A DNA stretch of 61,985 nucleotides from positions 1 through 61,985 of IMG/VR virus record IMGVR_UViG_3300037483_001239, one strand, 5' to 3'. The translations under genes were made by a program, and so were the position numbers. How positions within the stretch are numbered: position 1 is the stretch's first letter; each line of letters opens with the position of its first letter. Below, in pieces: positions 8,348 to 46,198 of the stretch. The DNA comes from a virus (lineage: Duplodnaviria > Caudoviricetes). The notes below the pieces were generated by a model. The model did not search any database. It was not told where the DNA came from and saw only the letters and a list, made by a program, of their open reading frames with translations.

Positions 8348-9672
8348 CGGTCGAGGTGAACCCGGTTGGCCGGAGATGCGGAGCGAAGAACGGGGCATTG
8401 TCGTGTACGTATTGTTACCTTCCTCTCGATGCCCGACTCAACGAGCCGCTCCCGGTGGTTGATCACCTTGCGGTGCAAAAGGTGGTGGCCGGGCTAGTGC
8501 CTAAGGACGGGAGCTTTTCCCTCTTCGGGGGTGAACCCCTCCTCGCTGCGAACGAGGACCTTGAACGGCTTTGGTCCTTCGGGTTGGAGACATACGGGAA
8601 GAATGGCGTGCAGACGGGCGGGAGACCGATCACCGAGAAGCATTTCGAGATGTTCCACAAGTACAAGGTTGCGGTGGGGTTCTCGATTGACGGGCCGGAG
8701 GAGTTGGGAGATGCCCGGTGGGCGGGCTCGACGGAGGAAACGAGAAGGTCAACCGCGTATTCGATCTCGTGTTTGGAACGGTGTTTGAAGGAGGGGATTC
8801 CGGCGGGTCTGATCCTGACCCTTCACAGGAAGAATGCGTCGGCGTCGAAACTTCCGAGGCTCCTCGACTGGCTGCGAGGGCTTGACGGTCAAGGACTGAG
8901 TTCGACCGGCCTTCACCTTCTCGAGCATGATGGTCCTACGCGTTGGCTCGCCTTGAGTGATGAGGAGAACATCGCGGCGGTGCTCGCGTTGTACGAGCTT
9001 CAGAGGAAGAGCAAGACTCTGTCCTTCGATACGATCACCGATATGATCGCGCTTCTGCGGGGACTCGACTCCTGGAAGTGGAAGGACGGGACAGACGCTG
9101 GGGTCAAATGCGTGTGGACCGCGTGCGATCCGATGACAACGCCAGCCGTTCAAGGGGTGGACGCCTCCGGGAATCGGTCTCTTTGTCAGCGCGTGCACAA
9201 GGATGGGATTCCGTGGGGCCCGGCTCAGCCCGGACCTCTTATCCGGCAGCTGACTCTCGCGACGACCCCGCAGGAGAACGGTGGGTGTAAGGGATGCCGG
9301 TTCCTGATCACGTGTAAGGGGCAGTGTCCGGGGACCGCGATCGGTGGGGACTGGAGGAAGAGGAGTCGGGACTGTCGGGTCTGGTACTCGCTCTTCGAGC
9401 ATTTCGAACAGAGGATGCTCGCCGCGAAGGAGATCCCGATCACGATGTGGCCGGACGTGAAACGCGTGGAGGATGTGCTGATGGCCGGATGGGCGGTTGG
9501 CCGGACGATGTCTCTTGTCGATGCAATAGGGTACGTTCTACGAGGGACGGCCGTCTCCCAGACCCGGGTAGGGCACATCGATCATGAAGACCATACCGAT
9601 CACACGGACACGACGAAGGTCTTGACCGGAGGAGAACCGGTCATGGACGGACCAAAGGAGGGTGTGCTGTGA
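8344..9672 (+). CDS. Radical SAM/SPASM-domain protein (peptide-maturase type)
   Basis: C-x8-C-x2-C (CGAKNGALSCTYC), FGGEP, GFSIDG, SPASM-like CKGCRFLITCKGQCPG..C; own C-terminal HIDHEDHTDHTD. Confidence 0.85.
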   Translation: MTVEVNPVGRRCGAKNGALSCTYCYLPLDARLNEPLPVVDHLAVQKVVAGLVPKDGSFSLFGGEPLLAANEDLERLWSFGLETYGKNGVQTGGRPITEKHFEMFHKYKVAVGFSIDGPEELGDARWAGSTEETRRSTAYSISCLERCLKEGIPAGLILTLHRKNASASKLPRLLDWLRGLDGQGLSSTGLHLLEHDGPTRWLALSDEENIAAVLALYELQRKSKTLSFDTITDMIALLRGLDSWKWKDGTDAGVKCVWTACDPMTTPAVQGVDASGNRSLCQRVHKDGIPWGPAQPGPLIRQLTLATTPQENGGCKGCRFLITCKGQCPGTAIGGDWRKRSRDCRVWYSLFEHFEQRMLAAKEIPITMWPDVKRVEDVLMAGWAVGRTMSLVDAIGYVLRGTAVSQTRVGHIDHEDHTDHTDTTKVLTGGEPVMDGPKEGVL

Positions 9673-15478: not shown

Positions 15479-18097
15479 CTATTTCAGCCCGAGATGCTTC
15501 TCGAGCACAGCTCGTGCCGCCTTCATCTCAGCGTTCTTGGACTTCGTCATTGCCCAGTTCGTCCCGACGTGGATGTCGACTGGACAGAACCAGCCGGCGG
15601 GGTAGTACTTCCGAACGTTCTCGGGTCGGGCAGACGCCTGCACGATTCCCGGCCACTTCTGCTCCATGATGTCGCGGACGCAGATCCAGGTTTCCTTGGC
15701 GATGTCCTTCGGGGTGTTGATGACGACTTCGTCGTGGACGGTCAAGCGGAGGGTAGCGCCCTTCGGGAGTTGATCCTCGAGTTGGATGACTTCGTCGATC
15801 ATCATGTCGGCGGCGGTGCTGCTTGCCGGGAAGTTGTAGATCTCTGTGATTTCTCGAGTGAACCACCATCGGCGTCGCGCGAACGGATTCGCGAGGTAGT
15901 GGTTCTTGTTCACGAAGTCGGGGAGGCCCTCCCGCCAGTCATGGAAGACGGCAAACTTCGTGAAGAACTTGTAGATGAACTCCCGGACGAAGTCATAGTC
16001 CAGGTTGTGGCCGGCCGCGATTGAGTCCGCGCCTCGCCCGTAGCCCAGTCCATAGACAATGAACTTCGCGGCGTGACGTTCTGCATCAGTGACAATCGAG
16101 TCGAGGGATTCCTTGGTGTACTGCCGTCCGAGAGTCTCTGCGGCGACGGCTCTGTGATTGTCCACGCCGCTCGCGAGGAGTTCGAGACCGACGGGGTCGC
16201 CGGACAGGACCATGGCGACGCGCCATTCGATCTGGGAGGAGTCCCCGGAGAGGAGAATATGCTCGTCGTCGTCCGGTTCCCAGATCTCTCTCATTTCTTC
16301 CGGGACGTTCTGTGCGTTCGGATCTTGAGAGTTGAACCGCCCATTCGCGGCTTTGCTGACGCCAAAGCGAGGATGGAGCCACCCCTCTTCCCAGCCCTTC
16401 CGGACGAAGGTCGACGACATCTTCCGGAGGTTCCGGATCTCGACGATTGCCCCGAGGGCAGCATTGTCCGGGGACATCGCGGCAAGCGCCTCGATCGCGT
16501 CGGCATTTGCCGTTCTCCGCTGCCCCTTCTTCTTGTCCATCAGGTATTGGACGGGGAGTCCGAGCTTGTCGTAGAGGAGCGCCATCAACTGTTGAGGACT
16601 GTCGAGGTTGAGGTACGGGTCCCCGAGTCCATCCTTGAGGGTCGTCTCTAGGGCGTCGGCTCGAGCGTTAAGCCCGATCATCCAGAACTCTGCCTTCTCC
16701 TGGTTGATTTTCATCCCGCGCTGGGTCATTCGGAGGAGAGGGAGGTGAACGGGAAGAACATGCTTGTAGTACAGGTCAGTCATCCCGTACTTCGCGAGCT
16801 CCATCTTCAGGCCGTTTGCCGGATCATACGCAGCACGGTCGGTCCCGATCACATCCTTCCCGCAGACGGTGTAGATGTCGTCTCGGTAGTTCTCTCGCCC
16901 CTTCCAGTATTCCATGTCCGTATGGTTCGAGGCGATGAATGCGAGGTCCTTCTCCGCTCCGCGTGCACCTTGGTACGCCCCCTTGTTCTGGGAGGAGATT
17001 GAGGTCTGACCATAGGACGAGTTGCAGAGGTGGAAGGCGACCATCGTATCGAAGACTCTACTCCTCCAGAGCTCGGGGGTCACCCCCTTCGAGCCTTTCG
17101 CCTCCGCGAACGGGAGGTCGAAGTAGAGTATGTTCTGACCGCAGATCTCGATCCGAGGATCTCCAAGAATCTCATCAAAGAGCTGCTGAGCACCAAGGGT
17201 CCAATCGTACACGTAAGCCTTGTCTGGGCCCGGGGCAAAGCCGCACATCCGAATCGAATCAGACTGAGGGGAGAGACCAGTGGTCTCGAAGTCGAAGGTG
17301 CAGGCTCCCCGTGCTCTCGCAGCGCGGAGCAAATCATCTCGAGTAGATGTAAGGTCCGCACGACGGACAATCTCGAACGGTACGCGACGGATTTCTGGGA
17401 ACGTGCTTTCAACTGCCGCTCGAGCCATGTCGTGGACCGCGAACGGCCACCGGTGTTGAGCCCGCATGATGAAGGCGGGATGCCATGTCGGAAAGACCTT
17501 CCGGCCAAGGCCTTCGGTGGGGACACCTCGATAGAGGCCGATTCCTTTTTTCCCCGTGAGGACATTGAGTGGGATCTCCCCGAGGGCGAGGATCACATTT
17601 GCGGTAGAGGCCTCGAGCTCCACCGCGAGGAAGGGGGCGCAACACGCGATCTCGTGAGCCGTCGGAGTTCGGTTCCCTGGAGGTCGGCAATTAACACAGT
17701 TGTAGACCCGGACCGTTGCCCGTGGAATCCCTCCGTGCGCCATGATCACATTCAGGATCCGACCGGACCCGCCCTGGAACGGACCCATCTTCCCCGGGCG
17801 AAACATTGGGGTGTCCACCTCTTCCGCGCCTGGAGCTTCTCCGATTGCGAGGATCGTCGCGTCCTTCGGGCCTTTCGCTGGGACGATTCCAGGTTCCCTG
17901 AACAGCGTGCAAGCACGACAACTCTCCGGCTTCCCGAAGGGATTGTCATCGGTTCGTTCGGCGAGAGCCGGGGTACGGGGGATAGAGGCAAAGGCCAGTT
18001 GCCGCTGAGGGGCGACGTGCCCACACGGGAGGAAGGAAAGCCCCGCCATTCCAATGACCGGTTCACGGCAGACGGGACAGTTCCCGAGGGTAGTCAT
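15479..18097 (-). CDS. polA: Family A DNA polymerase with N-terminal family-4 UDG domain and 3'-5' exonuclease
   Basis: C..C.L, GEAPG, NCRPPGNRTP, TWHPA (UDG4); FDFETTG (exo I); DSSQIEWRV, RHAAKFIVYGLGYG, TVHDE (pol motifs A/B/C). Confidence 0.92.
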   Translation of the reverse strand: MTTLGNCPVCREPVIGMAGLSFLPCGHVAPQRQLAFASIPRTPALAERTDDNPFGKPESCRACTLFREPGIVPAKGPKDATILAIGEAPGAEEVDTPMFRPGKMGPFQGGSGRILNVIMAHGGIPRATVRVYNCVNCRPPGNRTPTAHEIACCAPFLAVELEASTANVILALGEIPLNVLTGKKGIGLYRGVPTEGLGRKVFPTWHPAFIMRAQHRWPFAVHDMARAAVESTFPEIRRVPFEIVRRADLTSTRDDLLRAARARGACTFDFETTGLSPQSDSIRMCGFAPGPDKAYVYDWTLGAQQLFDEILGDPRIEICGQNILYFDLPFAEAKGSKGVTPELWRSRVFDTMVAFHLCNSSYGQTSISSQNKGAYQGARGAEKDLAFIASNHTDMEYWKGRENYRDDIYTVCGKDVIGTDRAAYDPANGLKMELAKYGMTDLYYKHVLPVHLPLLRMTQRGMKINQEKAEFWMIGLNARADALETTLKDGLGDPYLNLDSPQQLMALLYDKLGLPVQYLMDKKKGQRRTANADAIEALAAMSPDNAALGAIVEIRNLRKMSSTFVRKGWEEGWLHPRFGVSKAANGRFNSQDPNAQNVPEEMREIWEPDDDEHILLSGDSSQIEWRVAMVLSGDPVGLELLASGVDNHRAVAAETLGRQYTKESLDSIVTDAERHAAKFIVYGLGYGRGADSIAAGHNLDYDFVREFIYKFFTKFAVFHDWREGLPDFVNKNHYLANPFARRRWWFTREITEIYNFPASSTAADMMIDEVIQLEDQLPKGATLRLTVHDEVVINTPKDIAKETWICVRDIMEQKWPGIVQASARPENVRKYYPAGWFCPVDIHVGTNWAMTKSKNAEMKAARAVLEKHLGLK

Positions 18098-18903
18098 GCT
18101 CCTGCTTTCGGGGAGAAGATGCTTGGGTTGGACTCGACGAAGAGGTGCCAGGTCCTGGGGAAGTTCTCGGTGATGAGTCGTCCAACCTCGTTCGCGTATT
18201 GACGGATCTCCCACTGAGCGTTCACGGCCATCCGCAGCTTGAGGAAGCCGAGCCAGTTCCGGAGGTCCGTCGACGCCCGCATCCGGCTATAGCGGGCAAC
18301 GGGGACGGGAAGTCGTGCGAGCTCCTTGGGGACGCCCAGGGCGAGGCCCTGTTCGTACACGGTCTGCGCCATGCGATAGACGAGTTCCAGGTCTCGGAGC
18401 CACTGCCTGAACGGCTCCCGCTCCGACGTGAAATGGATGGCCTGCGCTTGCTTGTTCTCGGCCTTGCGGGCGGCGTCGACCCGCTCGAAGAGGGCTTCTT
18501 CCTTCGGGAGGTAGTTGACGTCCGGGAGCGGCGTGTATCGAGCCGACATCTCGTTGTAGGACTGGGTCCGATGGCGGTGCCATTCCCGGAAGACGAAGAT
18601 CGGGGCTTGTACCTCGATTGTCATCCCACACATCTCGAATGGGGTGTGGTGGGAATTGTTCCAGAGGTACGCCAGGAGACGTTCATCGCCAGGCCCGCAC
18701 TCTGGGTCCTTGAGGCAGACCGGACGAGATCGGGACTCCCGGAGGATGTATTCAGGGGCCTGATCCGAGCATCGTTCGGAGTGCTTGGGGCCCCAGCCTT
18801 TGAACCCTTGGCCGGTCGACATCCGCGCCGCCTCGATGATGCGGGAGTCGGAGCCCCAGACCTCGATGAGAGAGACGTAGCCGTGGTCGAGGATGGGAGT
18901 CAT
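18094..18903 (-). CDS. thyX: Flavin-dependent thymidylate synthase
   Basis: HHTPFE, REWHRHRTQSYNEMSARY, AQWEIR. Confidence 0.95.
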   Translation of the reverse strand: MTPILDHGYVSLIEVWGSDSRIIEAARMSTGQGFKGWGPKHSERCSDQAPEYILRESRSRPVCLKDPECGPGDERLLAYLWNNSHHTPFEMCGMTIEVQAPIFVFREWHRHRTQSYNEMSARYTPLPDVNYLPKEEALFERVDAARKAENKQAQAIHFTSEREPFRQWLRDLELVYRMAQTVYEQGLALGVPKELARLPVPVARYSRMRASTDLRNWLGFLKLRMAVNAQWEIRQYANEVGRLITENFPRTWHLFVESNPSIFSPKAGA

Positions 18904-29036: not shown

Positions 29037-29756
29037 CTACCACGAGGACTGCGGAGGAGTGGAAACGACCGTCCGCCAGAAGTCGGTCTGGTCCAGATAC
29101 GTGGTCGGGTCGGGAACCCCTGCGATGTGGAAGGCTTCACGCCGTTCCACGCAGGTGGAGCACCTCCCACACTGGAGCAGCCCCGCGTTGTAGCAGGACC
29201 AGGTGTAAGCGTACGGGACTCCGAGCACGTGTCCGAGAGAGACGATCTCGGCTTTTGTCATCCCCGAGAAGGGGGCGTCGAGGTGGAGGCCATACCCTGA
29301 CCAGAGAGCTTCGGCCGTCGCACGGATGAAGTCGGGGCGGCAGTCCGGGTACACGGGATGGTCCCCAGCGTGAGCCGCGTAGGCGACAGCCTTCGCACCT
29401 CGACTGACTGCGAGAGCCGCCGCTACCGCGAGGAGCAGGAGGTTCCGACCGGGAACCACCGTCAGCTTCATGTTCCCGGCGGCGTAATGCCCTTCGGGAA
29501 CGGCTTCGCGTCGTCCGACCTGCGAGCTCTCGGCCCCCTCGAAGATCGGGGCGAGCGCGGCGGAGAGAGCGACCTCTACGAGCTGGACTCCGGCGTCACG
29601 CACGATGGCTCGAGCATAGGACAGCTCGTTCGCGTGGCGCTGACCGTAGTGCACGCTGAGGGCGGTGACCTCCTTCCTCTCGTTGACGAGGTGGTAGAGG
29701 AGTGTCGACGAGTCGAGGCCTCCGGAGAGGAGGACGATGGCCTTCTCTGGGTTCAT
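29037..29756 (-). CDS. queC: 7-cyano-7-deazaguanine synthase
   Basis: SGGLDS, YGQRH, VPGRN, YPDCR, TWSCY, CGRCSTC. Confidence 0.95.
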   Translation of the reverse strand: MNPEKAIVLLSGGLDSSTLLYHLVNERKEVTALSVHYGQRHANELSYARAIVRDAGVQLVEVALSAALAPIFEGAESSQVGRREAVPEGHYAAGNMKLTVVPGRNLLLLAVAAALAVSRGAKAVAYAAHAGDHPVYPDCRPDFIRATAEALWSGYGLHLDAPFSGMTKAEIVSLGHVLGVPYAYTWSCYNAGLLQCGRCSTCVERREAFHIAGVPDPTTYLDQTDFWRTVVSTPPQSSW

Positions 29757-29770
29757 AACGTCAAGTCCTT

Positions 29771-29986
29771 TCACTTGCCCTGGGGTGGGCGCTTCTTCTT
29801 CTTCTTCGATGGGGTCGGAGGGGTCAGCACGGTGGCCTTCTTCGAGGTCCAGAAGCGAGGCTTCTTCGCCGCGCGCTTCGGCTCTCCGGCCTTCCTCCGG
29901 CAGGGTAGGCACGGCGGTGGGAAGTCCCAGCTACGCGTGCGGGACCATCGCGGTTTCTTGCAGCGAGGACAGGGGCGCTTTGTCAT
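29771..29986 (-). CDS. Small basic Zn-finger-like protein
   Basis: CPRC..CLPC, Lys-rich tail. Confidence 0.45.
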   Translation of the reverse strand: MTKRPCPRCKKPRWSRTRSWDFPPPCLPCRRKAGEPKRAAKKPRFWTSKKATVLTPPTPSKKKKKRPPQGK

Positions 29987-32980: not shown

Positions 32981-33219
32981 AGAACCCGCCACCCGAAGCG
33001 CGGACGGCGTTGGCGGATCGCGTCGCTGACCGGCTGGCCCCACTTCGTCCCGAGTTGGAACCACCGGTACATTCCGAGTGGGCATTCCCACGTCGAGGCG
33101 AGCTCGCCGTAGACGCTCGCATGGATTTTCACCAGCCGCAGGGCGTGGTCGTGGCGGGCAATCGGGCATCGTGGAGAACCGGGTTCGCGTGCGGGTGCAG
33201 GTGTTAGGTGCAGTGTCAT
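32977..33219 (-). CDS. Hypothetical protein
   Basis: GGAGG RBS; TATACT -10 box upstream at about 33243-33248. Confidence 0.5.
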   Translation of the reverse strand: MTLHLTPAPAREPGSPRCPIARHDHALRLVKIHASVYGELASTWECPLGMYRWFQLGTKWGQPVSDAIRQRRPRFGWRVL

Positions 33220-33476
33220 GCTAGGCCTACCTCCATGGTGTTAGTATACCCCAAATGCCTGGAAGACGGAACGCAGTCAGTTTGACCTCTTTTTGAGGTA
33301 CTCCGAAGAAGTATCTCTTTTTCGGGCGACGTCCGACCGGTGGAGCGTTTCGCTCCTCAGCTGCTGGCCTCGATTCGAGACAGACGACTCGTCGACTTGT
33401 CTCAAAACCGGGAATACCGGACGAGGCGACCTCGTCTCAAATCGAGAATTCGGCTGCTCCCTTTTTTGACCTGCTG

Positions 33477-33489
33477 TAAGTCGTTGATT
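33477..33489 (-). promoter_or_regulatory. IHF-consensus site upstream of the early + strand promoter
   Basis: AATCAAcgacTTA matches WATCAANNNNTTR; TATTAT -10 at 33531. Confidence 0.55.
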
Positions 33490-33929
33490 CTAAACAGACT
33501 ATTCTTCGGGCGTTTTTCTAGGGACGGACGTATTATTGAAGCGTCGGAAGGGACGGGACAACAGAGAAGCGGACGGGCGCGCGGGTCAAGCCGAGCCACG
33601 AACCGCAGACAGGGTCGGGAACGAACCAGAGCAGCGAAGCAGCTGGCCGAGGTCCCCCGAAACCGAAGACCACGCCGGGGAGAACCTCCGCCGTGGGCAG
33701 TTGTAGGGTCGGGGTGAGAAACCAGAGGCGAGCACACCGCGCGGGATACAAAACCCGCCACGGAGAACGCGCGCGAGCGCGGTTGTACGGCAACCTGAAT
33801 CGGCAACCCAATCGGATCACCGACGAGCGAAGCGGGACTTCCGTCCGCGACGCGAAGCCAACAGAACGGATGGGTGCGCCTGACTCCCCATGCCGGCAGA
33901 ACAAACATCAATCATTCTCCTAGACGTAT

Positions 33930-34003
33930 GGTGAGGGGGTGCTTCGCAGTGGCCCGTTGCCACTGTGGAACACCTAAACCACTTTGCGGGTCCCAAGTCC
34001 CGC
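33930..34003 (+). ncRNA. Twister-like ribozyme 1 (circularly permuted, type-P5)
   Basis: GGU GAGGG-P1 hairpin-UAA ACC AC-GCGGG UCCCAAGU CCCGC. Confidence 0.8.
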
Positions 34004-34018
34004 GTTCGAGGAGAATCC

Positions 34019-34291
34019 ATGGAAAACACGAATTCCGTTGCCGTTGCCGAGATCACTCTCACTGCGCACGACCTGTCCGACCGCACGGTCCGCGACGGTT
34101 CGCTTCGCGAGCGCGAGTCCTCCATCCGCGGGATGTTCGAGCGCGGCTGGTCGATCCGTACGATCGCGAAGCACTTCGACGTGTCCTACGAGTGGGCGCG
34201 CCGGATCGCGAAGAACGTCGCGTACGACTACGACGACGTCACGATCGAGGCGGCCGTCGACGAGGTCCCGAACCTGGTCGTGGCCTTCTGA
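34019..34291 (+). CDS. Small HTH protein
   Basis: GWSIRTIAKHFDVSYEWARRI; GAGGAG RBS. Confidence 0.75.
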   Translation: MENTNSVAVAEITLTAHDLSDRTVRDGSLRERESSIRGMFERGWSIRTIAKHFDVSYEWARRIAKNVAYDYDDVTIEAAVDEVPNLVVAF

Positions 34292-34295
34292 AGCT

Positions 34296-34354
34296 GGTGA
34301 GGGCGAGGGGTGCTGAAGCCCCTCGTAAACCACAGGGTGGTCCCAAGTCCACCC
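34296..34354 (+). ncRNA. Twister-like ribozyme 2
   Basis: GGUGAGGG CGAGGGG..CCCCUCG UAAACCAC A GGGUGG UCCCAAGU CCACCC. Confidence 0.85.
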
Positions 34355-34375
34355 GGTTTTCAAGGAGAGAGAAGA

Positions 34376-34588
34376 ATGGGAAACGACACGAAGAAGAGCG
34401 CGCCGGTGATGGACGCTTCCGCGGTCCGTGCGGAGTTCGCGAAGCTGCAGGCGAAGCGGGCGGCCTCGAAGGCCCGGCGGCAGACGCCGGAGTTCAAGGT
34501 CGCGCAGAAGGCGCGCAACGCCGCGAAGGCCGCGCAGCGGAGGCTCGTGCTCGCGGAGGCCGCGAAGCTGGGCTTGAAGCTCAGCTGA
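34376..34588 (+). CDS. Small basic helical protein, similar to the 30409-30792 product
   Basis: KARRQTPEFKVAQKA..LVLAEAAKLGL versus KAYRSKPETKAKQKA..LLLAKAKELGI. Confidence 0.7.
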   Translation: MGNDTKKSAPVMDASAVRAEFAKLQAKRAASKARRQTPEFKVAQKARNAAKAAQRRLVLAEAAKLGLKLS

Positions 34589-34599
34589 TCGGCGTTGCC

Positions 34600-34658
34600 G
34601 GTGAGGGAGGCGCGGACGCTCGCGCCTTAAACCACGGACCGAGTCCCAAGTCTCGGTC
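34600..34658 (+). ncRNA. Twister-like ribozyme 3
   Basis: GGUGAGGG AGGCGCG..CGCGCCU UAAACCAC G GACCGAG UCCCAAGU CUCGGUC. Confidence 0.85.
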
Positions 34659-34675
34659 AGGAGGGAGGACGGAAG

Positions 34676-34966
34676 ATGGCGAAGCCACTTCTGGTCGGAA
34701 CGTTCCGGGTGGTTTGTCAAGGCTGTCAAAAGCCTCTCGGAACGCGACTCTGCATCGCAAAGCTGAACGGGCTGATCTCTCATGGGATCTGTCCGGACTG
34801 CGAGGCGGAGCTCCGGAGGAAGTTCGGGCTGTCTCCGAGGCCTGTGAGCGCCGACGGGGTCACGACCCCGAAGGAAGAGCCGAGGAAAGAGACAGACGAG
34901 ATCGAGAGGATGCTGCGGGCCGGGAACTGGCAGGGAGCGGCGGAGGCTCTCGTTGCCGACGAGTGA
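34676..34966 (+). CDS. Zn-finger hypothetical protein
   Basis: CQGC..SHGICPDC. Confidence 0.7.
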   Translation: MAKPLLVGTFRVVCQGCQKPLGTRLCIAKLNGLISHGICPDCEAELRRKFGLSPRPVSADGVTTPKEEPRKETDEIERMLRAGNWQGAAEALVADE

Positions 34967-34968
34967 AG

Positions 34969-35027
34969 GGTGAGGGGTAAGGGCATGAGCCCTTACTAAA
35001 CCACAGCTTGGGTCCCAAGTCCTGAGC
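34969..35027 (+). ncRNA. Twister-like ribozyme 4
   Basis: GGUGAGGG GUAAGGGC..GCCCUUAC UAAACCAC A GCUUGGG UCCCAAGU CCUGAGC (G-U pairs). Confidence 0.85.
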
Positions 35028-35041
35028 AAGGAGAAGAGAGA

Positions 35042-35584
35042 ATGAGAGAGCGTTTGGCGTTTGTCATCCTGGCCGTTGTCAGCCTCGTTGCGTGTGGTGG
35101 GGGAAGCTCCGACACGCTAACGGGAGTCACCGTCGACCCGACGGAGCCTGTTGCCGTTGTCGCGTCGCCGACTCCGAGTCCGAATCCGAATCCAAATCCG
35201 ACTCCGACTCCAACCCCGCAGGCACCTCCGCCACCGAAGGCGGATCCGACTCCGACTCCGGCGCCCACCCCAGCACCCACCCCGACTCCGGCTCCACCCA
35301 CCCTGACCCTGACCTGCGAGGCCTCGGTCAGCGGGATTTCCATCACCTCGACGAGCATTCCGTGGGGGTTCACCTGGTACGCGTCGGAGTCCACCAACGT
35401 GACCGTGACCGTTGTCACGAATCCGGGAGGAGTCCAGGCGAGCCGGACCGACAGTGGTAAGGCGGTCGGTGCTGCTGTCCTGACGGGAGGTCTTTCCCCC
35501 GGGACCACGTACACCGGGAACTACACGTTCCGAGCAGGGGACGGAACCACTTGTACTGCGTCCACTCGTGCTACCACGATGTGA
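35042..35584 (+). CDS. Lipoprotein with Pro/Thr linker and beta-sandwich-like C-terminus
   Basis: Lipobox LVAC after a hydrophobic signal; PTPTP repeats. Confidence 0.75.
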   Translation: MRERLAFVILAVVSLVACGGGSSDTLTGVTVDPTEPVAVVASPTPSPNPNPNPTPTPTPQAPPPPKADPTPTPAPTPAPTPTPAPPTLTLTCEASVSGISITSTSIPWGFTWYASESTNVTVTVVTNPGGVQASRTDSGKAVGAAVLTGGLSPGTTYTGNYTFRAGDGTTCTASTRATTM

Positions 35585-35585
35585 T

Positions 35586-35642
35586 GGTGAGGGAGGCGGT
35601 CTGTGAACCGCCTTAAACCACGTGCCGGTCCCAAGTCCGGCA
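35586..35642 (+). ncRNA. Twister-like ribozyme 5
   Basis: GGUGAGGG AGGCGGU..ACCGCCU UAAACCAC G UGCCGG UCCCAAGU CCGGCA. Confidence 0.85.
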
Positions 35643-35659
35643 AGGCAAGGAGGAAGAGA

Positions 35660-35857
35660 ATGAATGACCAGGTCACACACCCATGCCGCTTCTGCGGTCA
35701 GCAGGTGTTCACCGTAGGGAAGATCAGTACTGGAGGATGGGTCTGTATCGTCCTCGGGCTGGTCGGATCCCCACTTCTCGTCGGGATCCCGTTGTTCTTC
35801 TTGGGGCTCTGCCTCAAAGAGAAGTTCGTTTCCTGCGATACCTGCGGGAGGCAGTGA
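35660..35857 (+). CDS. LITAF-like membrane Zn-ribbon protein
   Basis: CRFC - hydrophobic hairpin - CDTC. Confidence 0.65.
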   Translation: MNDQVTHPCRFCGQQVFTVGKISTGGWVCIVLGLVGSPLLVGIPLFFLGLCLKEKFVSCDTCGRQ

Positions 35858-36060
35858 TGAGGAGGCCCATCATCGCAGATGAATGCGGGGACGGCTACCA
35901 CAAGGCGTGTCCGGGAGGGTCGGTACTCGGCCGCGGTCCGGCTGCCCAAGGGCGGGCCAACATCCTCTGTGAGTGTTCGTGCCATGTCGAGGAGACGCTT
36001 CGCACGGGGAAGATCGTACACGTCGCGGACAGGGCGTCGAAGACCGGGAAGGAAGACTGA
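35857..36060 (+). CDS. Small Cys/His protein
   Basis: C..GYHKAC..CECSCH. Confidence 0.55.
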   Translation: MRRPIIADECGDGYHKACPGGSVLGRGPAAQGRANILCECSCHVEETLRTGKIVHVADRASKTGKED

Positions 36061-36130
36061 CACTCGGCGGTAGGTCGTGCGCAGCGACGCGTGACCCACC
36101 GCGGATTGTCATCTCACAAGGAGGAAGAGA

Positions 36131-36340
36131 ATGAAGGTCACGTTCACGATGGCGGAGCCCGAGGAGAAGAAGCACTCGGTGAGGTTCAACTTCGAGGCGC
36201 TCGACACCATCCCGATCACGGGGATCCTCGGGATCGAGCCGGAAGACGCGAAGAAGGCGCTCAAGAACGCGTCGTTCTACATCCCGAAGCCGATCGGCGA
36301 GCACGCGAAGCGGATCCGCGTGACGATCGAGGAGCTGTGA
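36131..36340 (+). CDS. Hypothetical protein
   Basis: AAGGAGG RBS; KKHSVRF..FYIPK..IRVTIE. Confidence 0.7.
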   Translation: MKVTFTMAEPEEKKHSVRFNFEALDTIPITGILGIEPEDAKKALKNASFYIPKPIGEHAKRIRVTIEEL

Positions 36341-36576
36341 GCTCCTCGCTGACGGCCCAAGACCGTGCTGCACTCGGCATTGTCATGGCGGTCGGCGAGT
36401 GCATTCGAGATCTCGGGAGGCCAGTCCCGAGCGGTGAGGTCTACGCCCATCTCATGGGGCACCTCACTCTCGAGTCGTACACATCCGTGATCACAGTCCT
36501 CAAGGCGAAGGGGCTGGTCGAAGAGAAGAACCACCTGCTGACATGGATCGGCCCGGTCAGCGGGTTCGCAGGCTGA
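36337..36576 (+). CDS. Small winged-helix-like protein
   Basis: GTGA overlap; VPSGEVYAHLM..LKAKGLV..HLLTW. Confidence 0.6.
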   Translation: MSSSLTAQDRAALGIVMAVGECIRDLGRPVPSGEVYAHLMGHLTLESYTSVITVLKAKGLVEEKNHLLTWIGPVSGFAG

Positions 36577-36584
36577 AAGCCGAA

Positions 36585-36661
36585 AGCAGAGGACGGTTCG
36601 GACCTGTTGAGGTGGTTACAGGCCTGAGCCGTAATGCTACAGTCCGGTTCCAAGTCCGGAC
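36585..36661 (+). ncRNA. Twister-like ribozyme 6 (divergent, covarying)
   Basis: AGCA GAGGA-P1-UAA UGCU AC A GUCCGG UUCCAAGU CCGGAC; P2 fully covaries and the purine tract/loop also change. Confidence 0.85.
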
Positions 36662-36685
36662 GCAGGCAGAAGGAGAAAGGACAGC

Positions 36686-36898
36686 ATGCCCGAGAACAAG
36701 CAGGTGACGTTCCCGTACAAGACCCTCGACATCGCGGTCAAGGACAAGTTCAAGAAGATCGGAGGCCCGGAGAAGGCCTTCGCCTTCCTCGTCAAGGGCT
36801 TCAAGAGCGTCGAGTGGCGGAGGCGAGCCGACAAGGCGGCGCGGGCCCGAGACGAGGCGGAGGACGTGGCGGTGACCGCGTCGGCGAAGAAGGCATAA
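36686..36898 (+). CDS. Small basic hypothetical protein
   Basis: AAGGAG/AAGG RBS; WRRRADKAARAR. Confidence 0.65.
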   Translation: MPENKQVTFPYKTLDIAVKDKFKKIGGPEKAFAFLVKGFKSVEWRRRADKAARARDEAEDVAVTASAKKA

Positions 36899-36976
36899 GC
36901 CGGAATCGGACCTCGGACTACTGGGCGGGTGGAGCCACTTCCAAGCCCGCCACTTCCATCCCGGTAGCCCGAGGCG

Positions 36977-37007
36977 GGAGGCGAGAGTGCGTCCTCGCTT
37001 CCTTTTT
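36977..37007 (+). terminator. Intrinsic terminator ending the early transcript
   Basis: GGAGGCGAG..CTCGCTTCC TTTTT. Confidence 0.7.
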
Positions 37008-37498
37008 CATCTGGAGGCAGGCAGGGCCGTCCGCTGCGGCGAATCCCTCTCACTCCGAGAGGAGAAGTGGACGACCATTGCTCCTTCTTCCGATCCGAGG
37101 GCGACGACTCGGAGGCCTCGATTCTTGGAACTGTTCACTGCTCCGTTCCTTCCGACGTTCCAGCAGGCCGGTCGGTCCGGGCTCTCCCCAGTGGTAGTAT
37201 CCATACACTCCGCTTTTCATCTACGTCTCCCTCCTTTTGTCCGACGTTGCCACCGCGAGGAGAAGCTCGGCCTGGATCGCATCGGCTTCGGCAATCAGCA
37301 CATCGAAGTATTGTGACAGATCCTCGTGCCGAGGTGGCGATCCCTTGACCTGACGCGCGGAGGACAGGACGATCCCGCGTAGCCGGCGCACTTCGGTGAC
37401 GAGGCGCAGTTGTGGGCCCCCTCGCGTCTCCCAGTACAGCAGTTCCGTCTCGGTGATTCGCTCGCGCGTGCCCTCCCTCCCTTCGCCCGACGTTGACG

Positions 37499-40633: not shown

Positions 40634-42156
40634 GCACGGAGATGCTCTCTCCGGACCAGGAGGCCCTCGCCCTTGAGCTTGCTCAACGGGCTGAACTCAC
40701 CTGTGAGATCGGGCAACAGATCACGGTCGGTGCTGCCCGAGAAGAACTCCTCGCGATCGAACGGGAGCTCCGCAGGAGGGTCTGGGTGGGGGACCCTACC
40801 ACCTGGGCGGAGGAACGGCTCCGTGCGTACCTCTGGTCCATCCAGAAGAAGATCATGGAGTCCGTGCGTAAGCACCGGAAGACGGCGGTCCCCTCCTGCC
40901 ACGAAGCGGGGAAGTCCTACATCGCCGCAGGCATCGTCTCCTGGTGGCTTGATGTCCATCGTCCGGGCGAAGCCTTCGCGGTGACGTCTGCGCCTACCGG
41001 TCGCCAGGTCAAGGCCATCCTCTGGAGGGAGATCGGGCGAGCCCACGGCCTTGGACAGCTCCCCGGGCGTACGAACCAGACGGAATGGCTCATGGTCAAT
41101 CCGAGGACCGGCAAGGAGGAGCTCGTAGCCTTCGGGCAGAAGCCGGCCGACATGGACCCAGGCGCCTTCCAGGGGATCCACGCTCGACGCGTCCTCGTGG
41201 TCTTCGACGAGGCCTGCGGCATGCCCAAGGCTCTCTGGGATGCGGCGGACAGCCTCATCGCGAACGACGACTCCCGGTTCCTGGCCATCGGGAACCCCGA
41301 CGACCCTCACTCGGAGTTTGCAGAAGTCTGTAAGCCGGGCTCCTCCTGGAACACCATCCCGATCTCGGTCTTCGATACTCCGAACTTCACGGGTGAGGAC
41401 GTTCCCGAGGAACTCCGACACGTCCTCGTCGGCCGACTCTGGGTCGAGGAGAAGCGCAAGAAGTGGGGAGAGAAGTCTCCTCTCTACCAGGCGAAGGTTC
41501 TCGGGCGCTTCCCGGACCGCGTCGCGGACGGGCTCATCCCCTTCTCCGCGATCAAGGCGGCTCAAGCTCGAGAGCTCCGTCCGGATCAACCCGACGAGCT
41601 CGGAGTCGACGTCGGTGCCGGAGGCGACAAGAACGTTGTCTGTCGGAGGCGAGGTCCCGTCGCCCGGATCATCCGGGAGGATCAGGAACCGGACACCATG
41701 ATCTCCTGCGGGAACCTCCTGGCGGACCTCCGGAGTACCCGTGCGAGCATTGCAAAGGTCGATGCCATCGGCATAGGCCGAGGCCTCGTCGACCGTGCCC
41801 GTGAACAGAACCAGCCTGTCCGAGGAATCAACGTGTCCGTCTCTCCGACGGAGACAGCGGAAGCCTCTGCGGAGTTCGGGGGAGACGGCTTCGCCAACCT
41901 CCGAGCCCAGGCCTACTGGGAGCTCCGCGAACGCTTCCTCTCCGGTGCAATCGACATCGACGAGGAGGATGACGATCTCGCAAACCAACTCGCCTCGATG
42001 AAGTACAAGCGGACCTCCAAGGGGAAGATCCTCGTCGAGTCGAAAGACGACATGCGCCGGAGGGGGCTTGCCTCTCCTGACCGTGCTGATGCCCTTATGC
42101 TGGCCTTCCTCAATCCTCCGGAGGAGGAGGAAGAGTCAGGTGGAGTGCTCTGGTAA
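40630..42156 (+). CDS. terL: Terminase large subunit
   Basis: SCHEAGKS, VVFDEA, IGNP, LGVDVG, DAIGIG, SPDRADAL. Confidence 0.95.
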   Translation: MSTEMLSPDQEALALELAQRAELTCEIGQQITVGAAREELLAIERELRRRVWVGDPTTWAEERLRAYLWSIQKKIMESVRKHRKTAVPSCHEAGKSYIAAGIVSWWLDVHRPGEAFAVTSAPTGRQVKAILWREIGRAHGLGQLPGRTNQTEWLMVNPRTGKEELVAFGQKPADMDPGAFQGIHARRVLVVFDEACGMPKALWDAADSLIANDDSRFLAIGNPDDPHSEFAEVCKPGSSWNTIPISVFDTPNFTGEDVPEELRHVLVGRLWVEEKRKKWGEKSPLYQAKVLGRFPDRVADGLIPFSAIKAAQARELRPDQPDELGVDVGAGGDKNVVCRRRGPVARIIREDQEPDTMISCGNLLADLRSTRASIAKVDAIGIGRGLVDRAREQNQPVRGINVSVSPTETAEASAEFGGDGFANLRAQAYWELRERFLSGAIDIDEEDDDLANQLASMKYKRTSKGKILVESKDDMRRRGLASPDRADALMLAFLNPPEEEEESGGVLW

Positions 42157-43532
42157 TGCCTTGGCTTCGACGACGGGCGCAGCGGCAACCGAACAACGAA
42201 GGCCTCTCCGTGCTCGGGGCGTTCCGGACGTTGGCCGGGGCGGGATCCGATCTGATGTCGAGGTTCAACCTCGCCTCCGCAGCAGGCCTGACCTTCGGAG
42301 GGAAGAGAGACCTCTACTCCGTTCTCGGGTATCCTCGAGCCCTCTCCCCGAAGGACTACCGTGACCGCTACAAGCGGGGAGACATCGCGGCGAGGATCGT
42401 GGAGGCGTTCCCGGAGGCGACCTGGTCCGGAGGACTCGAGCTAGTCGAAGACGAGAACCCGAAGGCACTGACCCCGTTCGAGGCCGAGATGGATGCCCTC
42501 GACAAGAGGCTCGGGGTCTGGTCCGTCTTTAACCGGGTCGACATCCTCGCAGGCCTCGGTGAGTTCGCGATCGTCCTGATCGGGGCCGCAGGGAAGCTCG
42601 AAGAGGAACTCCCCCCGATGTCCTCCCAGGAGGAGATTCTCTATCTCACGCCGTACGGTCCGGACGAAGTCCAGATCGAGACGTGCGACGAGAACACGGA
42701 GAGTCCCCGCTTCGGGATGCCCCTGACGTACACCGTCCAGAGGTCGACGACGACGGGGGCACGAGCCGTTGCTGGGCGTAGCGCCTTCACGAGAAAGGTC
42801 CATTGGACGAGAGTTCTCCACTTTGCCGACGGTATCCTGGAAGACGCAGTCTTCGGGACTCCCCGCCTCGAGAAGGTCTGGAACCGTCTCGACGACCTCG
42901 ACAAGATCGTCGGTGGAGGCTCCGAAGCCTTCTGGTTGAGGATCCACCAGGGGTACCACTGGAACGTGGAGAAGGACGTGAAGATCGGTCCGGACCAGAT
43001 CAAGAAGCTCGAGGCCGAGGCCGAGGAATTCTCCCACCAGCTGCGACGCTCGATCGCGACCCGAGGCATGAAGCTCGAGGTCAAGGGATCCGACGTCTCG
43101 ACCTTCAACAACCAGGTCATGTCGATCATCTCCCTGGTCTCCGGCGCGACGGGGATCCCCCAGAGGATCCTCCTCGGGAGTGAGCGCGGGGAGCTGGCGT
43201 CGACCCAGGACAAGGAGAATTGGAACGAGAGGGTCAAGGCGCGTCGTGCGAAGGTCGGAGACCCTCATGTCAGGCAGTTCGTGGAACGCGTGACAGGAGT
43301 CGGGGCTGTCCCGACTCCGGTGGAGTACGACATCCGCTGGCCCGAGATCAAGACTCTCACCCAGGACGAGCAAGCGAAGGTCGCGTCTGCCTGGGCCGGG
43401 CTCAGTGGGGCGGCCGGAGGCGTCGTCGTGACTCCGGAGGAGATCCGGGATCGTGTTCTCGGCCTTGACCCCCTCCCCGAAGACGAAGAGATGGAAGCCC
43501 CGGTTCCGGAGGAAGGAGCCTCTCCCGCATGA
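42156..43532 (+). CDS. Portal protein (DUF1073-like)
   Basis: Follows TerL; AARIVE, VHWTRV, GIPQRILLG..GELAS. Confidence 0.88.
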   Translation: MPWLRRRAQRQPNNEGLSVLGAFRTLAGAGSDLMSRFNLASAAGLTFGGKRDLYSVLGYPRALSPKDYRDRYKRGDIAARIVEAFPEATWSGGLELVEDENPKALTPFEAEMDALDKRLGVWSVFNRVDILAGLGEFAIVLIGAAGKLEEELPPMSSQEEILYLTPYGPDEVQIETCDENTESPRFGMPLTYTVQRSTTTGARAVAGRSAFTRKVHWTRVLHFADGILEDAVFGTPRLEKVWNRLDDLDKIVGGGSEAFWLRIHQGYHWNVEKDVKIGPDQIKKLEAEAEEFSHQLRRSIATRGMKLEVKGSDVSTFNNQVMSIISLVSGATGIPQRILLGSERGELASTQDKENWNERVKARRAKVGDPHVRQFVERVTGVGAVPTPVEYDIRWPEIKTLTQDEQAKVASAWAGLSGAAGGVVVTPEEIRDRVLGLDPLPEDEEMEAPVPEEGASPA

Positions 43533-46198
43533 GTCTTCTCCGGTTCTCCGTGGTCGTCCCGTCTCGGCTCGCGGCTATCTCCCTGGAACCGGAATGGATG
43601 ACCATCCGCCGGGCTGCGGACAACTCCCGGGAAGGGTTCCGCCAGGCTGTGACCGGCGCCGCGGCCGTCTCCCGGAATGGTCTTGACCTCTTCACGTTCA
43701 ATGAGTTCGTTCGGGGGAGGAAGGTCGACGAGGCGTGTGCACTTGCCGGGGAGACTTTCCGGGATGCGCTTCGGGGCCCGGTGGAAGCCTCCCTCCGTGG
43801 GCTTCTCCAGCGGGTGACAGGAGGCTACTCCTCGCATGTCGGGCGTTACGGGATTCGCATCGGAGCGGGGAAGACGAAGCCGGTCAAGGCTCGGCTCGAC
43901 CTGACCAACCAAGCCGCTGCCGACTGGATCAAGGAGCATGGCGGGGAGTTGATCGAGGGGCTGTCCGCGCGAAGCCGGGCAGCGGTCCGTGCTGCTCTCC
44001 TCCGATCCTTCGAGAGGGGGATCCCCACAGACAAGACGGCTCGGGAGATCCGGAGAGTCATCTCCCTGACGGATGGTCAGGAGCTAGCCGTGGAGAGGCT
44101 CCGCCTCCGCCTTGAAGAGGATGCAGAGGACGAGGCTGCGATCGAGAGACAGCTCGACCGCTACGCGGACAAGCTTCTTGCGGACCGCGCCGAGAACATC
44201 GCCCGGACGGAGACGATCCAAGCTGCGAACGAAGGACAGAGAATCGTCTGGCTGGATGCTGCAGAGCAGGGGCTCCTCGATCCGGAGGAAGTCGAGCGAG
44301 TCTGGATCGTGACCCCGGACGACCGGCTGTGCCCGATCTGCGAGGGGCTCGAAGGGGCCACCGCCGATCTTGACGGGACGTTCCGGGATGCAGAAGCCGA
44401 CGGAGAGGAGCTCAGCGGACCTCCTGCTCACAACCAGTGCCGATGTGCACAGGGTCTCCAACCGCGAGGACAGGCGAGGGCGGCAGCCGCTACGTCGTCC
44501 CGACTCCGTCCTCTGAACGAAGCCTGCTCCGGGTTCCACACGGAGTTCCTCCGGATGTTGGGAGGACCTGGGAGTGGGAATTTCGGGCATGGTGGACGAC
44601 CCGGAGAGGTCGGAGGGTCTGGAGAAGGGAGCGGTGACGTTCCTGAGCGGATCATCTCCGCTGTCCAGAAGCAGATTACGTGGGAGGGAAATCGCGTCGT
44701 CGTCGCTCGGGGAGGGACGATTCCTGAAGCTGGTTCGATCTTCTTCTCGACGGATGCAGGACTCGCGGCCGACTACGCACAGGGAGGTCGGACCTACGCG
44801 ACGTATGTCATCCAGAAGTCCGCGATCATCGAGGAGGGGACAAAGGAATGGGAGAGTATATTCCCGAAGCTCCAGTCCGAAAGCGCGGACTTCTTCACGT
44901 CGCCTCCTCCACAAGTTGAGGAGTTCCTCTCCACGCATCCGTGGGTCGCTGGGATCGCATCTGCTGGCGGTCAGTACATCCACGTGAAGAACCCGGAAGC
45001 GGCGAAGATCAAGTTGAAGAAGGAGTGGGTCGCGCGGGATGCGGGAGGGGTCGGTTCCGGGAACTTTGGACACGCTGGGATCCCAGGACAGGTCGGAGGG
45101 TCTGCCCCAGGAGAAGGAGGCGTCGCCAAGGGCCCCGCGACTCGCGCGAAGGACCGGCGGAAGGAATACAACGCGATCCACAAGAAGACGCAGGCCGAGT
45201 ACCGGAAGCAGAGGAACGAGAGACTTCGTCGGGAGAAGCTGGGGTTGGGCCCGGAGAAGCTGGAGCCCGTACAGCCTGCACCTGCACCTGCCCTGCCCGA
45301 CGCCAGCCCTGGAGGCCCCGCACCTCCGAGCGACGACGTCTCAGACGAGTACGTCTCTTCCCCTGAGCACAAGGCGAAGGAGGATGCCCTCTCCACGCCT
45401 CTGGTCAAAGACCAGAAGATTCTCGGCGGTGGAATCACCGAGTCGTACGTCGTCACCCTGGACAACGGACAGAAGGCGGTCTTCAAGCCGGAGACCCGAC
45501 CTCTTTCTCCTGAGGAGGCTCCGGCCGGGCATTTCAAGCTTCCAGAGGGAGAGACCGGGAAGATCCGTCCGGAGGAACTCCTCCGGAGGGGGATCACCGG
45601 AAAGGTCTCCGAGCGGGAAGCCGCTGCCTGGGAAGTCGCGAAGCTCGGAGGGGCTGACGACCTTGTCGCGCCGACGGTCGTCCGGGAAATCAACGGGAAG
45701 AAGGGTTCGCTCCAAGCGTTCGTTCCCAACGCGAAGACTGCATACGCCGTCGTCGCGAAGGGAGGGGCGGAGGGGTTCGCTCGGTCCTATGGGGTGACCC
45801 CCGGACAGGAGGACCGAGCCACAGACGATCTTCAACGCGCTGCGATGTTCGACTACATCATCGGGAATCAGGATCGGCATCAAGGGAACTGGATGGTCTC
45901 CGACGACGACGGTCGAATCAAGTTGATCGACCACGGGCTGTCCTTCGGAGAGACCCGAGCAGAGCATCCGACCTTCAACCAGAAGCTCCTCTACAACGTG
46001 ACTAACCCTGTCCAGAGGGGGATGGAGTTTGCTTCTCCTCGAGAGGTCGCCCGGAAGTACGTCGCGAATCGCGGGGCGATCAAGTCGACGTTAACGAAGC
46101 TGGGGCTTCCGCAGAAGTCTGTCGACCGGACCATGCGGAGAATCCTGAAGGCGTCGCAGGCGGGGAGCTGGAAAGACCTTTACGGGGACGGGTTCTAA
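43529..46198 (+). CDS. MuF/SPP1 gp7 head morphogenesis protein fused to ART-like and PI3K/PI4K/HipA-like kinase domains
   Basis: RAENIARTE..CPIC..PPAHNQCRC; RGG..FFSTD..ADYA; AVFKPE, SEREAAA, DYIIGNQDRHQGN, LIDHGLSF. Confidence 0.85.
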   Translation: MSLLRFSVVVPSRLAAISLEPEWMTIRRAADNSREGFRQAVTGAAAVSRNGLDLFTFNEFVRGRKVDEACALAGETFRDALRGPVEASLRGLLQRVTGGYSSHVGRYGIRIGAGKTKPVKARLDLTNQAAADWIKEHGGELIEGLSARSRAAVRAALLRSFERGIPTDKTAREIRRVISLTDGQELAVERLRLRLEEDAEDEAAIERQLDRYADKLLADRAENIARTETIQAANEGQRIVWLDAAEQGLLDPEEVERVWIVTPDDRLCPICEGLEGATADLDGTFRDAEADGEELSGPPAHNQCRCAQGLQPRGQARAAAATSSRLRPLNEACSGFHTEFLRMLGGPGSGNFGHGGRPGEVGGSGEGSGDVPERIISAVQKQITWEGNRVVVARGGTIPEAGSIFFSTDAGLAADYAQGGRTYATYVIQKSAIIEEGTKEWESIFPKLQSESADFFTSPPPQVEEFLSTHPWVAGIASAGGQYIHVKNPEAAKIKLKKEWVARDAGGVGSGNFGHAGIPGQVGGSAPGEGGVAKGPATRAKDRRKEYNAIHKKTQAEYRKQRNERLRREKLGLGPEKLEPVQPAPAPALPDASPGGPAPPSDDVSDEYVSSPEHKAKEDALSTPLVKDQKILGGGITESYVVTLDNGQKAVFKPETRPLSPEEAPAGHFKLPEGETGKIRPEELLRRGITGKVSEREAAAWEVAKLGGADDLVAPTVVREINGKKGSLQAFVPNAKTAYAVVAKGGAEGFARSYGVTPGQEDRATDDLQRAAMFDYIIGNQDRHQGNWMVSDDDGRIKLIDHGLSFGETRAEHPTFNQKLLYNVTNPVQRGMEFASPREVARKYVANRGAIKSTLTKLGLPQKSVDRTMRRILKASQAGSWKDLYGDGF

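Follow-up and report, generated by a model that had tools for sequence, protein, structure and literature searches.

Self-cleaving ribozymes strung one after another between the genes of a phage raise the question of what they do to the messages that contain them. The window considered here is the whole IMG/VR virus record IMGVR_UViG_3300037483_001239, 61,985 bases in length, with an estimated completeness of ca. 95% and a G+C content of 62%. Between positions 33930 and 36659 it holds six twister ribozymes of type P5, all on the + strand. The answer that we favor is that positions 33930-37010 constitute a single operon, running rightward and made up of small accessory genes, and that self-cleavage turns its polycistronic transcript into single- or few-gene mRNAs; we put the probability of the two statements jointly at about 0.6.

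The ribozymes were located by an Rfam scan with the Twister-P5 family (RF02684), whose curated cut-off is 37.6 bits. Five of the six copies scored above it (44.4-52.0 bits), and no other Rfam family had a match in the window at E ≤ 1. Ribozyme 1 (33930-34005) has a long insertion in stem P1; its Rfam match spans 33930-34002 (33.3 bits, E 0.0037). The remaining copies lie at 34296-34355 (ribozyme 2; match 34296-34352, 51.3 bits), 34600-34658 (ribozyme 3; 34600-34655, 48.6 bits), 34969-35027 (ribozyme 4; 34969-35024, 45.8 bits), 35586-35643 (ribozyme 5; 35586-35640, 52.0 bits) and 36585-36662 (ribozyme 6; 36585-36659, 44.4 bits). In every Rfam alignment the strands follow the order P2'-P1 hairpin-P2-P4 hairpin, with the termini in P5, and an actual P5 helix is evident in copy 1 only. 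The twister ribozyme and its type P5 reportedly go back to the work of Roth et al. in 2014. The copies share with that type the P1, P2 and P4 stems, the T1 and T2 pseudoknots, the U-A cut site and the strand order; copies 1-5 differ from it as a subtype with a 3-bp P2 (GGU/ACC) and with T1 AC/GU replacing the consensus GC/GC. The core of copy 1 is complete, with P2 GGU/ACC, T2 GGG/CCC, T1 AC/GU and U^AA all present. Copy 6 belongs to a different subtype, in which P2 is AGCA/UGCU and T2 is GGA/UCC, a further compensated T2 variant.

The cut site was taken as the conserved U^A dinucleotide after P1; a U-A cut site with a conserved adenine in this position is a twister feature (PMC5408937). All six copies have U^AA there, and self-cleavage of all six is predicted, at 33975^33976, 34326^34327, 34628^34629, 34997^34998, 35614^35615 and 36632^36633. 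The 3' products would start at positions 33976, 34327, 34629, 34998, 35615 and 36633. A first-pass annotation, made from the bare sequence, had drawn unit borders here, and the U^A-based prediction returned identical positions.

Conservation of the fold was assessed on an alignment of ribozymes of the window subtype; 11 viral records supplied 34 of these, and 28 were aligned. The long-P1 copies w1, w6, L9A, L9D and L9E were left out, as was G2c, which is identical to G2b. Standard pairing was found in 94.7% of alignment cells, against 69.6% in shuffles, and both sides change in 17 of 21 pairs; when partners are slid by ±1 column, pairing falls to 50-52%. Changes on both sides affect all seven pairs of P1 (95.8% paired), five of the six pairs of P4 (90.5%) and two of the three pairs of P2 (91.7%). 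Pseudoknots T1 and T2 are both 100% paired and both contain compensatory changes: in T2, GC is replaced by UA in four sequences and by AU in two, while in T1 AU is replaced by GC or CG in seven. Judged by this covariation, which extends to both pseudoknots, the fold is under selection.

The ribozymes are placed with great regularity relative to the genes. For all six, the gap between a stop codon and the ribozyme behind it measures 1-11 nt, and from the ribozyme end it is another 16-26 nt to an ATG with a strong Shine-Dalgarno (SD) sequence in front. The same picture emerged when the survey was widened to 14 viral records with 63 ribozymes, some of them from unrelated lineages whose P2 is of another variant: in 56 of the ribozymes, a frame of at least 50 codons is closed by a stop codon located -6 to +12 nt from the ribozyme start, and in 56, an SD plus a start codon follows 10-45 nt past the ribozyme end (median 23). 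In the window, the overlapping and thus translationally coupled gene pairs (ATGA at 35857, GTGA at 36337) have no ribozyme between them.

Units 1-4 carry one open reading frame (ORF) each and unit 5 carries four, as the first-pass annotation had it. A sixth unit, which it overlooked, starts at 36633, reaches as far as a terminator-like hairpin (36976-37003) and carries the ORF 36686-36898. All of these genes are on the + strand. The gene of unit 1, U1 (34019-34291, 90 amino acids), gives a weak helix-turn-helix signal (HTH_23, 21.8 bits, below the cut-off) and is 53% identical to an ortholog in G001, a viral contig discussed below, where it is ribozyme-flanked too. U2 (34376-34588, 70 amino acids) belongs to no family and is 69-71% identical to its G001 ortholog, which also lies between ribozymes. 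U3 (34676-34966, 96 amino acids) is Cys-rich and zinc-ribbon-like, has no family over the cut-off and is absent from the G001 array. U4 (35042-35584, 180 amino acids) has a lipoprotein-like N-terminus and a Pro/Thr-rich linker. Unit 5 consists of U5a (35660-35857), U5b (35857-36060), U5c (36131-36340) and U5d (36337-36576), with two overlapping stop/start pairs; the G001 ortholog of U5c (49% identity) is located directly 3' of a ribozyme. The last gene of the operon, U6 (70 amino acids), is 67-70% identical to its G001 ortholog. No Pfam family was found over the cut-off for the small proteins, and their PHROG matches were weak only. G+C content at third codon positions (GC3) is 0.69-0.97 in the ORFs of the array and 0.72-0.81 in the large genes of the phage.

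The arrangement is not limited to this phage. The subtype pattern was found in 12 stretches of 11 other viral contigs, and a looser pattern in at least 119 stretches. Arrays above the Rfam cut-off comprise six ribozymes in G001, ten within 5 kb in L075, six in L054, eight in L059 plus L085 (which are one contig), four in L036 and three in G002; the G003 array has nine, plus two below the cut-off. By these pattern matches, the design recurs among uncultured phages, and some of their arrays are larger than that of the window. The nearest relative found is G001 (62,011 bases), which has orthologs of U1, U2, U5c and U6 with 49-71% identity. Its U1 and U2 orthologs are flanked by ribozymes just as U1 and U2 are; these ribozymes are orthologous to those of the window and differ from them by compensatory changes in P1, P4 and T1. 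The genes between the four shared ones differ in the two phages, largely in ribozyme-bounded blocks, which fits the idea that ribozyme-plus-gene cassettes are evolutionary units in addition to having an RNA-level role.

Anatomy and comparison thus argue well for the release of gene units by consecutive ribozymes, as first proposed, with the cleavage itself being predicted. During transcription, each ribozyme would fold and cut at its own U^A site, and the polycistronic RNA would become a discarded leader and six messages, of which one would contain four genes and the others a single gene each. The shape of the products would follow from the P5-type strand order. An upstream product would have the G+C-rich P1 hairpin at its 3' end, plus one last U bearing a 2',3'-cyclic phosphate. 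A downstream product would start with 5'-OH-AAACCAC (seven unpaired bases), followed by the P4 hairpin, a short single-stranded spacer, the SD and the start codon. Computed lengths are 43-53 nt for the processed 5' untranslated regions (5'-UTRs) and 30-56 nt for the 3' tails; P1 hairpins have predicted energies of -9.6 to -23.4 kcal/mol (median -13.75), and P4 hairpins mostly of -10 to -13 kcal/mol. The likely benefit would be processing that is independent of host nucleases and provides each gene with a defined, hairpin-capped mRNA, the translation and decay of which would be uncoupled from those of its neighbors. At ribozyme 1, removal of the leader would also unmask the SD of the first gene.

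Support for this last step comes from the sequence around copy 1. The segment AUUCUCCU (33914-33921, + strand) is an anti-SD strand that forms the 5' side of a P5-like helix closing ribozyme 1, and its partner is the SD of the first gene, AGGAGAAU (34009-34016, + strand), which is predicted to be masked in uncleaved RNA. The complementarity of TTCTCCT (33915-33921) to AGGAGAA (34009-34015), pointed out in the first-pass annotation, was confirmed; the predicted helix is 8 bp long, closes the whole ribozyme and is present in both the minimum free energy and the centroid folds. The duplex has an energy of -11.7 kcal/mol, compared to -7.1 ± 2.2 kcal/mol in shuffles (z -2.1; equaled by 3.3% of shuffles), and the probability that the SD is unpaired is predicted to rise from 0.18 in uncleaved to 0.56 in cleaved RNA. 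The motif CATCATTCTCCTAG of the anti-SD strand is conserved in G001, and the G001 ortholog of copy 1 has a different upstream strand that is also complementary to the SD (z -3.1). Cofolding of the cleavage products did not separate copy 1 from the other copies, since incidental pairings with coding sequence dominate. Two other roles for TTCTCCT were rejected, though without certainty: as codons, it would lie in an ORF on the + strand (33693-33923) that lacks a coding-like GC3 (0.61/0.57/0.68 at the three codon positions), and as an SD of the minus strand, it would serve an ORF (33402-33908) that lacks one as well (0.64/0.59/0.59). The similarity of the leader to G001 appears in several frames at once and is therefore at the nucleotide level rather than frame-specific.

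Several observations weigh against self-processing of the operon RNA. Copy 1 stays below the Rfam cut-off (33.3 vs. 37.6 bits), which we attribute to a 37-nt insertion in P1, the core being intact. About nine of the stop codons found upstream of surveyed ribozymes are a UGA inside the ribozyme's own GGUGAGGG, and these may be due to chance in G+C-rich DNA. No σ70-like site was found on the + strand of the leader, and the consensus used may not suit the host; with no promoter found, the single long transcript is an assumption. A search of sequencing runs for the locus turned up two DNA data sets from sediment metagenomes, one of which is probably the source, and no RNA data set; cleavage in vivo, and what it would do to stability and translation, is inferred from the DNA. 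Cleavage by the glmS ribozyme destabilizes its mRNA, by a mechanism that involves RNase J1. For twister in E. coli, cleavage in a 5'-UTR in which no SD was masked left both reporter expression and the mRNA level unchanged (PMC5052635), and a gain in stability from the 5'-OH is thus not established. The first-pass annotation had called protection by the 5'-OH established; this is too strong, given the null result with twister in E. coli and the destabilization by glmS. Stabilization of the mRNAs, which it also suggested, is plausible by way of the hairpins at both new ends, and the part of the argument that relied on the 5'-OH is not safe.

The glmS precedent would rather fit an opposite outcome, in which the cut messages are targeted for decay (for example, by 5'-OH-dependent attack) and the accessory genes are kept low or short-lived; the outcomes of cleavage are, moreover, host-dependent. 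We consider such down-regulation unlikely: with stable hairpins at both new ends and a strong SD after every ribozyme, the products look built for use, and six costly elements would be an odd means of weakening an operon. A general ribosome-binding site (RBS) switch, in which every ribozyme hides the SD of the next gene until cut and thereby gates translation, has copy 1 in its favor, as well as an engineered precedent that works: in E. coli, masking of the SD in a twister stem led to 5- to 100-fold higher expression with the active ribozyme (PMC5052635). In addition, five of 31 ribozymes (w1, w4, L9A, G2a and G5b) have upstream flanks for which at most 3.3% of shuffles pair as well with the SD, where about one would be expected. 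Over all 31, however, flank/SD pairing has a mean z of -0.08 (median +0.34), and z is +1.0, +1.6, +0.4 and +0.2 for copies 2, 3, 5 and 6, respectively; the weaker CCTT/AAGG pairing that the first-pass annotation had proposed for copy 2 is no better than chance. In copy 4, the flank pairs with a z of -2.9 and SD accessibility is unchanged on cleavage (0.74 to 0.71). Mean predicted accessibility over 30 ribozymes goes from 0.54 to 0.52 on cleavage (Wilcoxon p 0.90), with a single ribozyme out of 30 rising by more than 0.2. It follows that exposure of the RBS by cleavage holds, as a prediction, for copy 1 and is not general among the 30-31 ribozymes tested, and we regard a switch at every ribozyme as decidedly improbable.

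A more radical fate for the products, also raised in the first-pass annotation, would be joining of the two ends of a unit by a host RtcB-type ligase, or by the ribozyme itself, after the half-ribozymes at its ends re-pair; units 33976-34326, 34327-34628, 34629-34997 and 34998-35614 would then be closed into translatable circular mRNAs during infection. If true, the phage would have exonuclease-proof messages, and twister ribozymes would for the first time be known to generate circular mRNAs that code for proteins naturally in a prokaryotic system. The end chemistry, 5'-OH and 2',3'-cyclic phosphate, is right (PMC6765202; for the Tornado system, PMC13622603), RtcB is common in prokaryotes (present in 10 of 14 control genomes), and the halves are compatible in window units 1-4 (P2 GGU/ACC, T2 GGG/CCC). 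Unit 5, on the other hand, is incompatible, which leaves four of the five window units, and among 23 adjacent pairs across arrays, 13 are fully compatible, three others match the cognate pair or better it, and seven are less compatible than the cognate pair (six of nine in G003 among them). The ends would be held by approximately 3 + 3 bp (P2 + T2), whereas Tornado needs an added stem (PMC13622603). Each ORF has its own stop codon, hence there is no endless frame; the authors who had raised the idea of circles for hammerhead arrays looked for circular or spliced products and reported none (PMC3088659). RtcB (PF01139) itself had no match at E ≤ 0.1 in the phage, which is ca. 95% complete, and a host enzyme could act instead. 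With mismatched halves, no phage RtcB and a negative hammerhead precedent, the proposal of circular mRNAs is unsupported, and we judge both the ligation route and the closure of these four units during infection to be very unlikely. A further alternative, compatible with processing of the operon RNA, is that small gene cassettes carry the ribozymes along as they spread, or are exchanged at points which the ribozymes mark; this would be the ribozymes' main role and cleavage a secondary one. It would account for the retention of U1, U2, U5c and U6 in the window and G001 while genes between the ribozymes differ, and for near-identical copies within one array (in G002, two copies of 51 nt do not differ at all; in L075, P1 loops are shared). 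Conserved cores of just 8-10 nt are, however, a poor substrate for homologous exchange, the covariation reflects selection on a catalytic fold, and the strict sense orientation and fixed SD spacing point to a role at the RNA level; as the main function of the ribozymes, cassette exchange therefore appears quite improbable to us.

Outside the ribozymes, three other elements in or next to the predicted operon may bear on its transcript. A long irregular hairpin on the + strand (36058-36111; -33.9 kcal/mol, z -4.0, with 0 of 200 shuffles as stable) lies immediately behind the stop codon of U5b and ahead of the SD of U5c, in the operon's only wide ribozyme-free gap between genes. It could be a processing site for a protein nuclease of the RNase III type, or a stabilizer; similar letters (GGTAGGT) are found in G001 downstream of its fourth ribozyme. 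The probable end of the operon is a terminator-like hairpin with a T run (36976-37013, + strand), in which a 10-pair stem is followed by TTTTT; its fold is no better than that of shuffles (z -0.7), which makes it a weak candidate. Upstream of the array, an ORF-poor, purine-rich leader of 760 nt (33170-33929, + strand) contains blocks that are conserved in G001, at 33599-33669 (82% over 77 nt) and 33476-33495 (20/20). It could be a promoter or operator region, or a leader RNA freed by ribozyme 1.

Some of the other viral contigs have features of their own. In G003 (L013 3322-10089), neighboring ribozymes alternate the mutually incompatible T2 variants GAG/CUC, GGG/CCC and UGG/CCA, which could reflect selection against mispairing of adjacent copies. 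The ten twisters of L075 (126-5083) are each followed by a C/A-rich leader of the CACTCACTCAC type before the SD, and their P1 loops have GTTTAAAC in common, suggesting that a single ribozyme-plus-leader module spread recently. The identical twisters of G002 (L014 4167-4217 and 4564-4614) stand beside different genes and indicate a recent duplication or gene conversion. G006 (L001/L007), a complete phage genome of 44 kb, carries the same twister at 73-126 and 44011-44064, inside its direct terminal repeat, and a skipping-rope RNA (RF02924) is located at L001 6260-6330. A type II hammerhead on the minus strand of L011 (3862-3930) shares that strand with a twister 1.3 kb away, which makes this phage one with mixed ribozyme classes.

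The array is located between leftward replication genes and rightward packaging and head genes. Among the former is a family-A DNA polymerase fused to an N-terminal domain of the uracil-DNA-glycosylase superfamily (15482-18214, minus strand); the latter include a portal protein (42156-43529) and a Mu-F-like head protein with a C-terminal PI3/PI4-kinase or HipA-like kinase domain (43529-46195, E 8e-11). The phage also encodes an ATP-dependent ligase, QueC (29040-29912) and a radical-SAM protein (8344-9669), and the last two suggest modified bases in its DNA. There are no tRNA genes in the 61,985 bases. No blastn match was obtained among GenBank phages, no relatives were found through a neighboring 516-amino-acid protein, and a search with the portal protein retrieved two short contigs, neither of which extends to the array. 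In species genomes, the subtype pattern was found in three metagenome-assembled contigs only (one of Bacteroidota and two of Chloroflexota), too few to name a host.

The closest known counterpart of the locus is the prophage hammerhead array, in which several ribozymes together flank single genes or short blocks of non-constant identity (Perreault et al. 2011, PMC3088659). Polycistronic hammerhead constructs of ~2 kb were cleaved at all sites in vitro, and processing into single-gene mRNAs was proposed for these arrays in the same 2011 paper (PMC3088659); the idea reappears, applied to twister, in a review of 2019 (PMC6765202). The present array likewise has several close, same-strand ribozymes that flank single genes and short blocks of changing identity in phage DNA, and we conclude that it is a twister-based case of the known ribozyme-flanked phage gene arrays. 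It differs in ribozyme class, which is twister type P5 and known here from sequence, and in size: the available part of the hammerhead report describes triple arrangements, compared to six ribozymes here and up to ten in other viral contigs. The roles of the thousands of twister and hammerhead ribozymes of bacteria and phages are described as largely speculative (PMC5408937, PMC6765202). In our literature searches, neither natural twister arrays of phages nor circular RNAs made from such arrays came up, and an earlier description of such arrays may exist. The rule in these arrays is unusually clean: a stop codon, a ribozyme, an SD and a start codon, repeated 6 to 10 times.

Single parts of the proposed scheme also have counterparts in engineered and natural RNAs. 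As in the engineered SD-masking switches of Felletti et al. (2016, PMC5052635), the SD after copy 1 is a strand of the closing helix; here, the arrangement is natural, has no evident ligand-sensing domain and occurs in one copy out of six. With Tornado and the retrozymes (PMC13622603, PMC7229834) the array shares units that are bounded by two ribozymes and have RtcB-joinable ends; in contrast to them, it has no designed end-joining stem or ligase gene, some of its halves are incompatible, and it encloses ordinary genes rather than repeats. The locus may serve as a test bed for host-independent operon processing, hairpin-capped message ends and cleavage-gated translation. In phage T7, RNase III sites process the early mRNA between genes, and the new ends keep a hairpin; in synthetic operons, ribozyme insulators such as RiboJ insulate genes from the upstream context, and natural ribozyme insulators of the present kind would be ready-made parts for such operons. 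Unlike in these systems, the phage RNA described here is predicted to cut itself without a host enzyme, leaving 5'-OH and 2',3'-cyclic phosphate ends.

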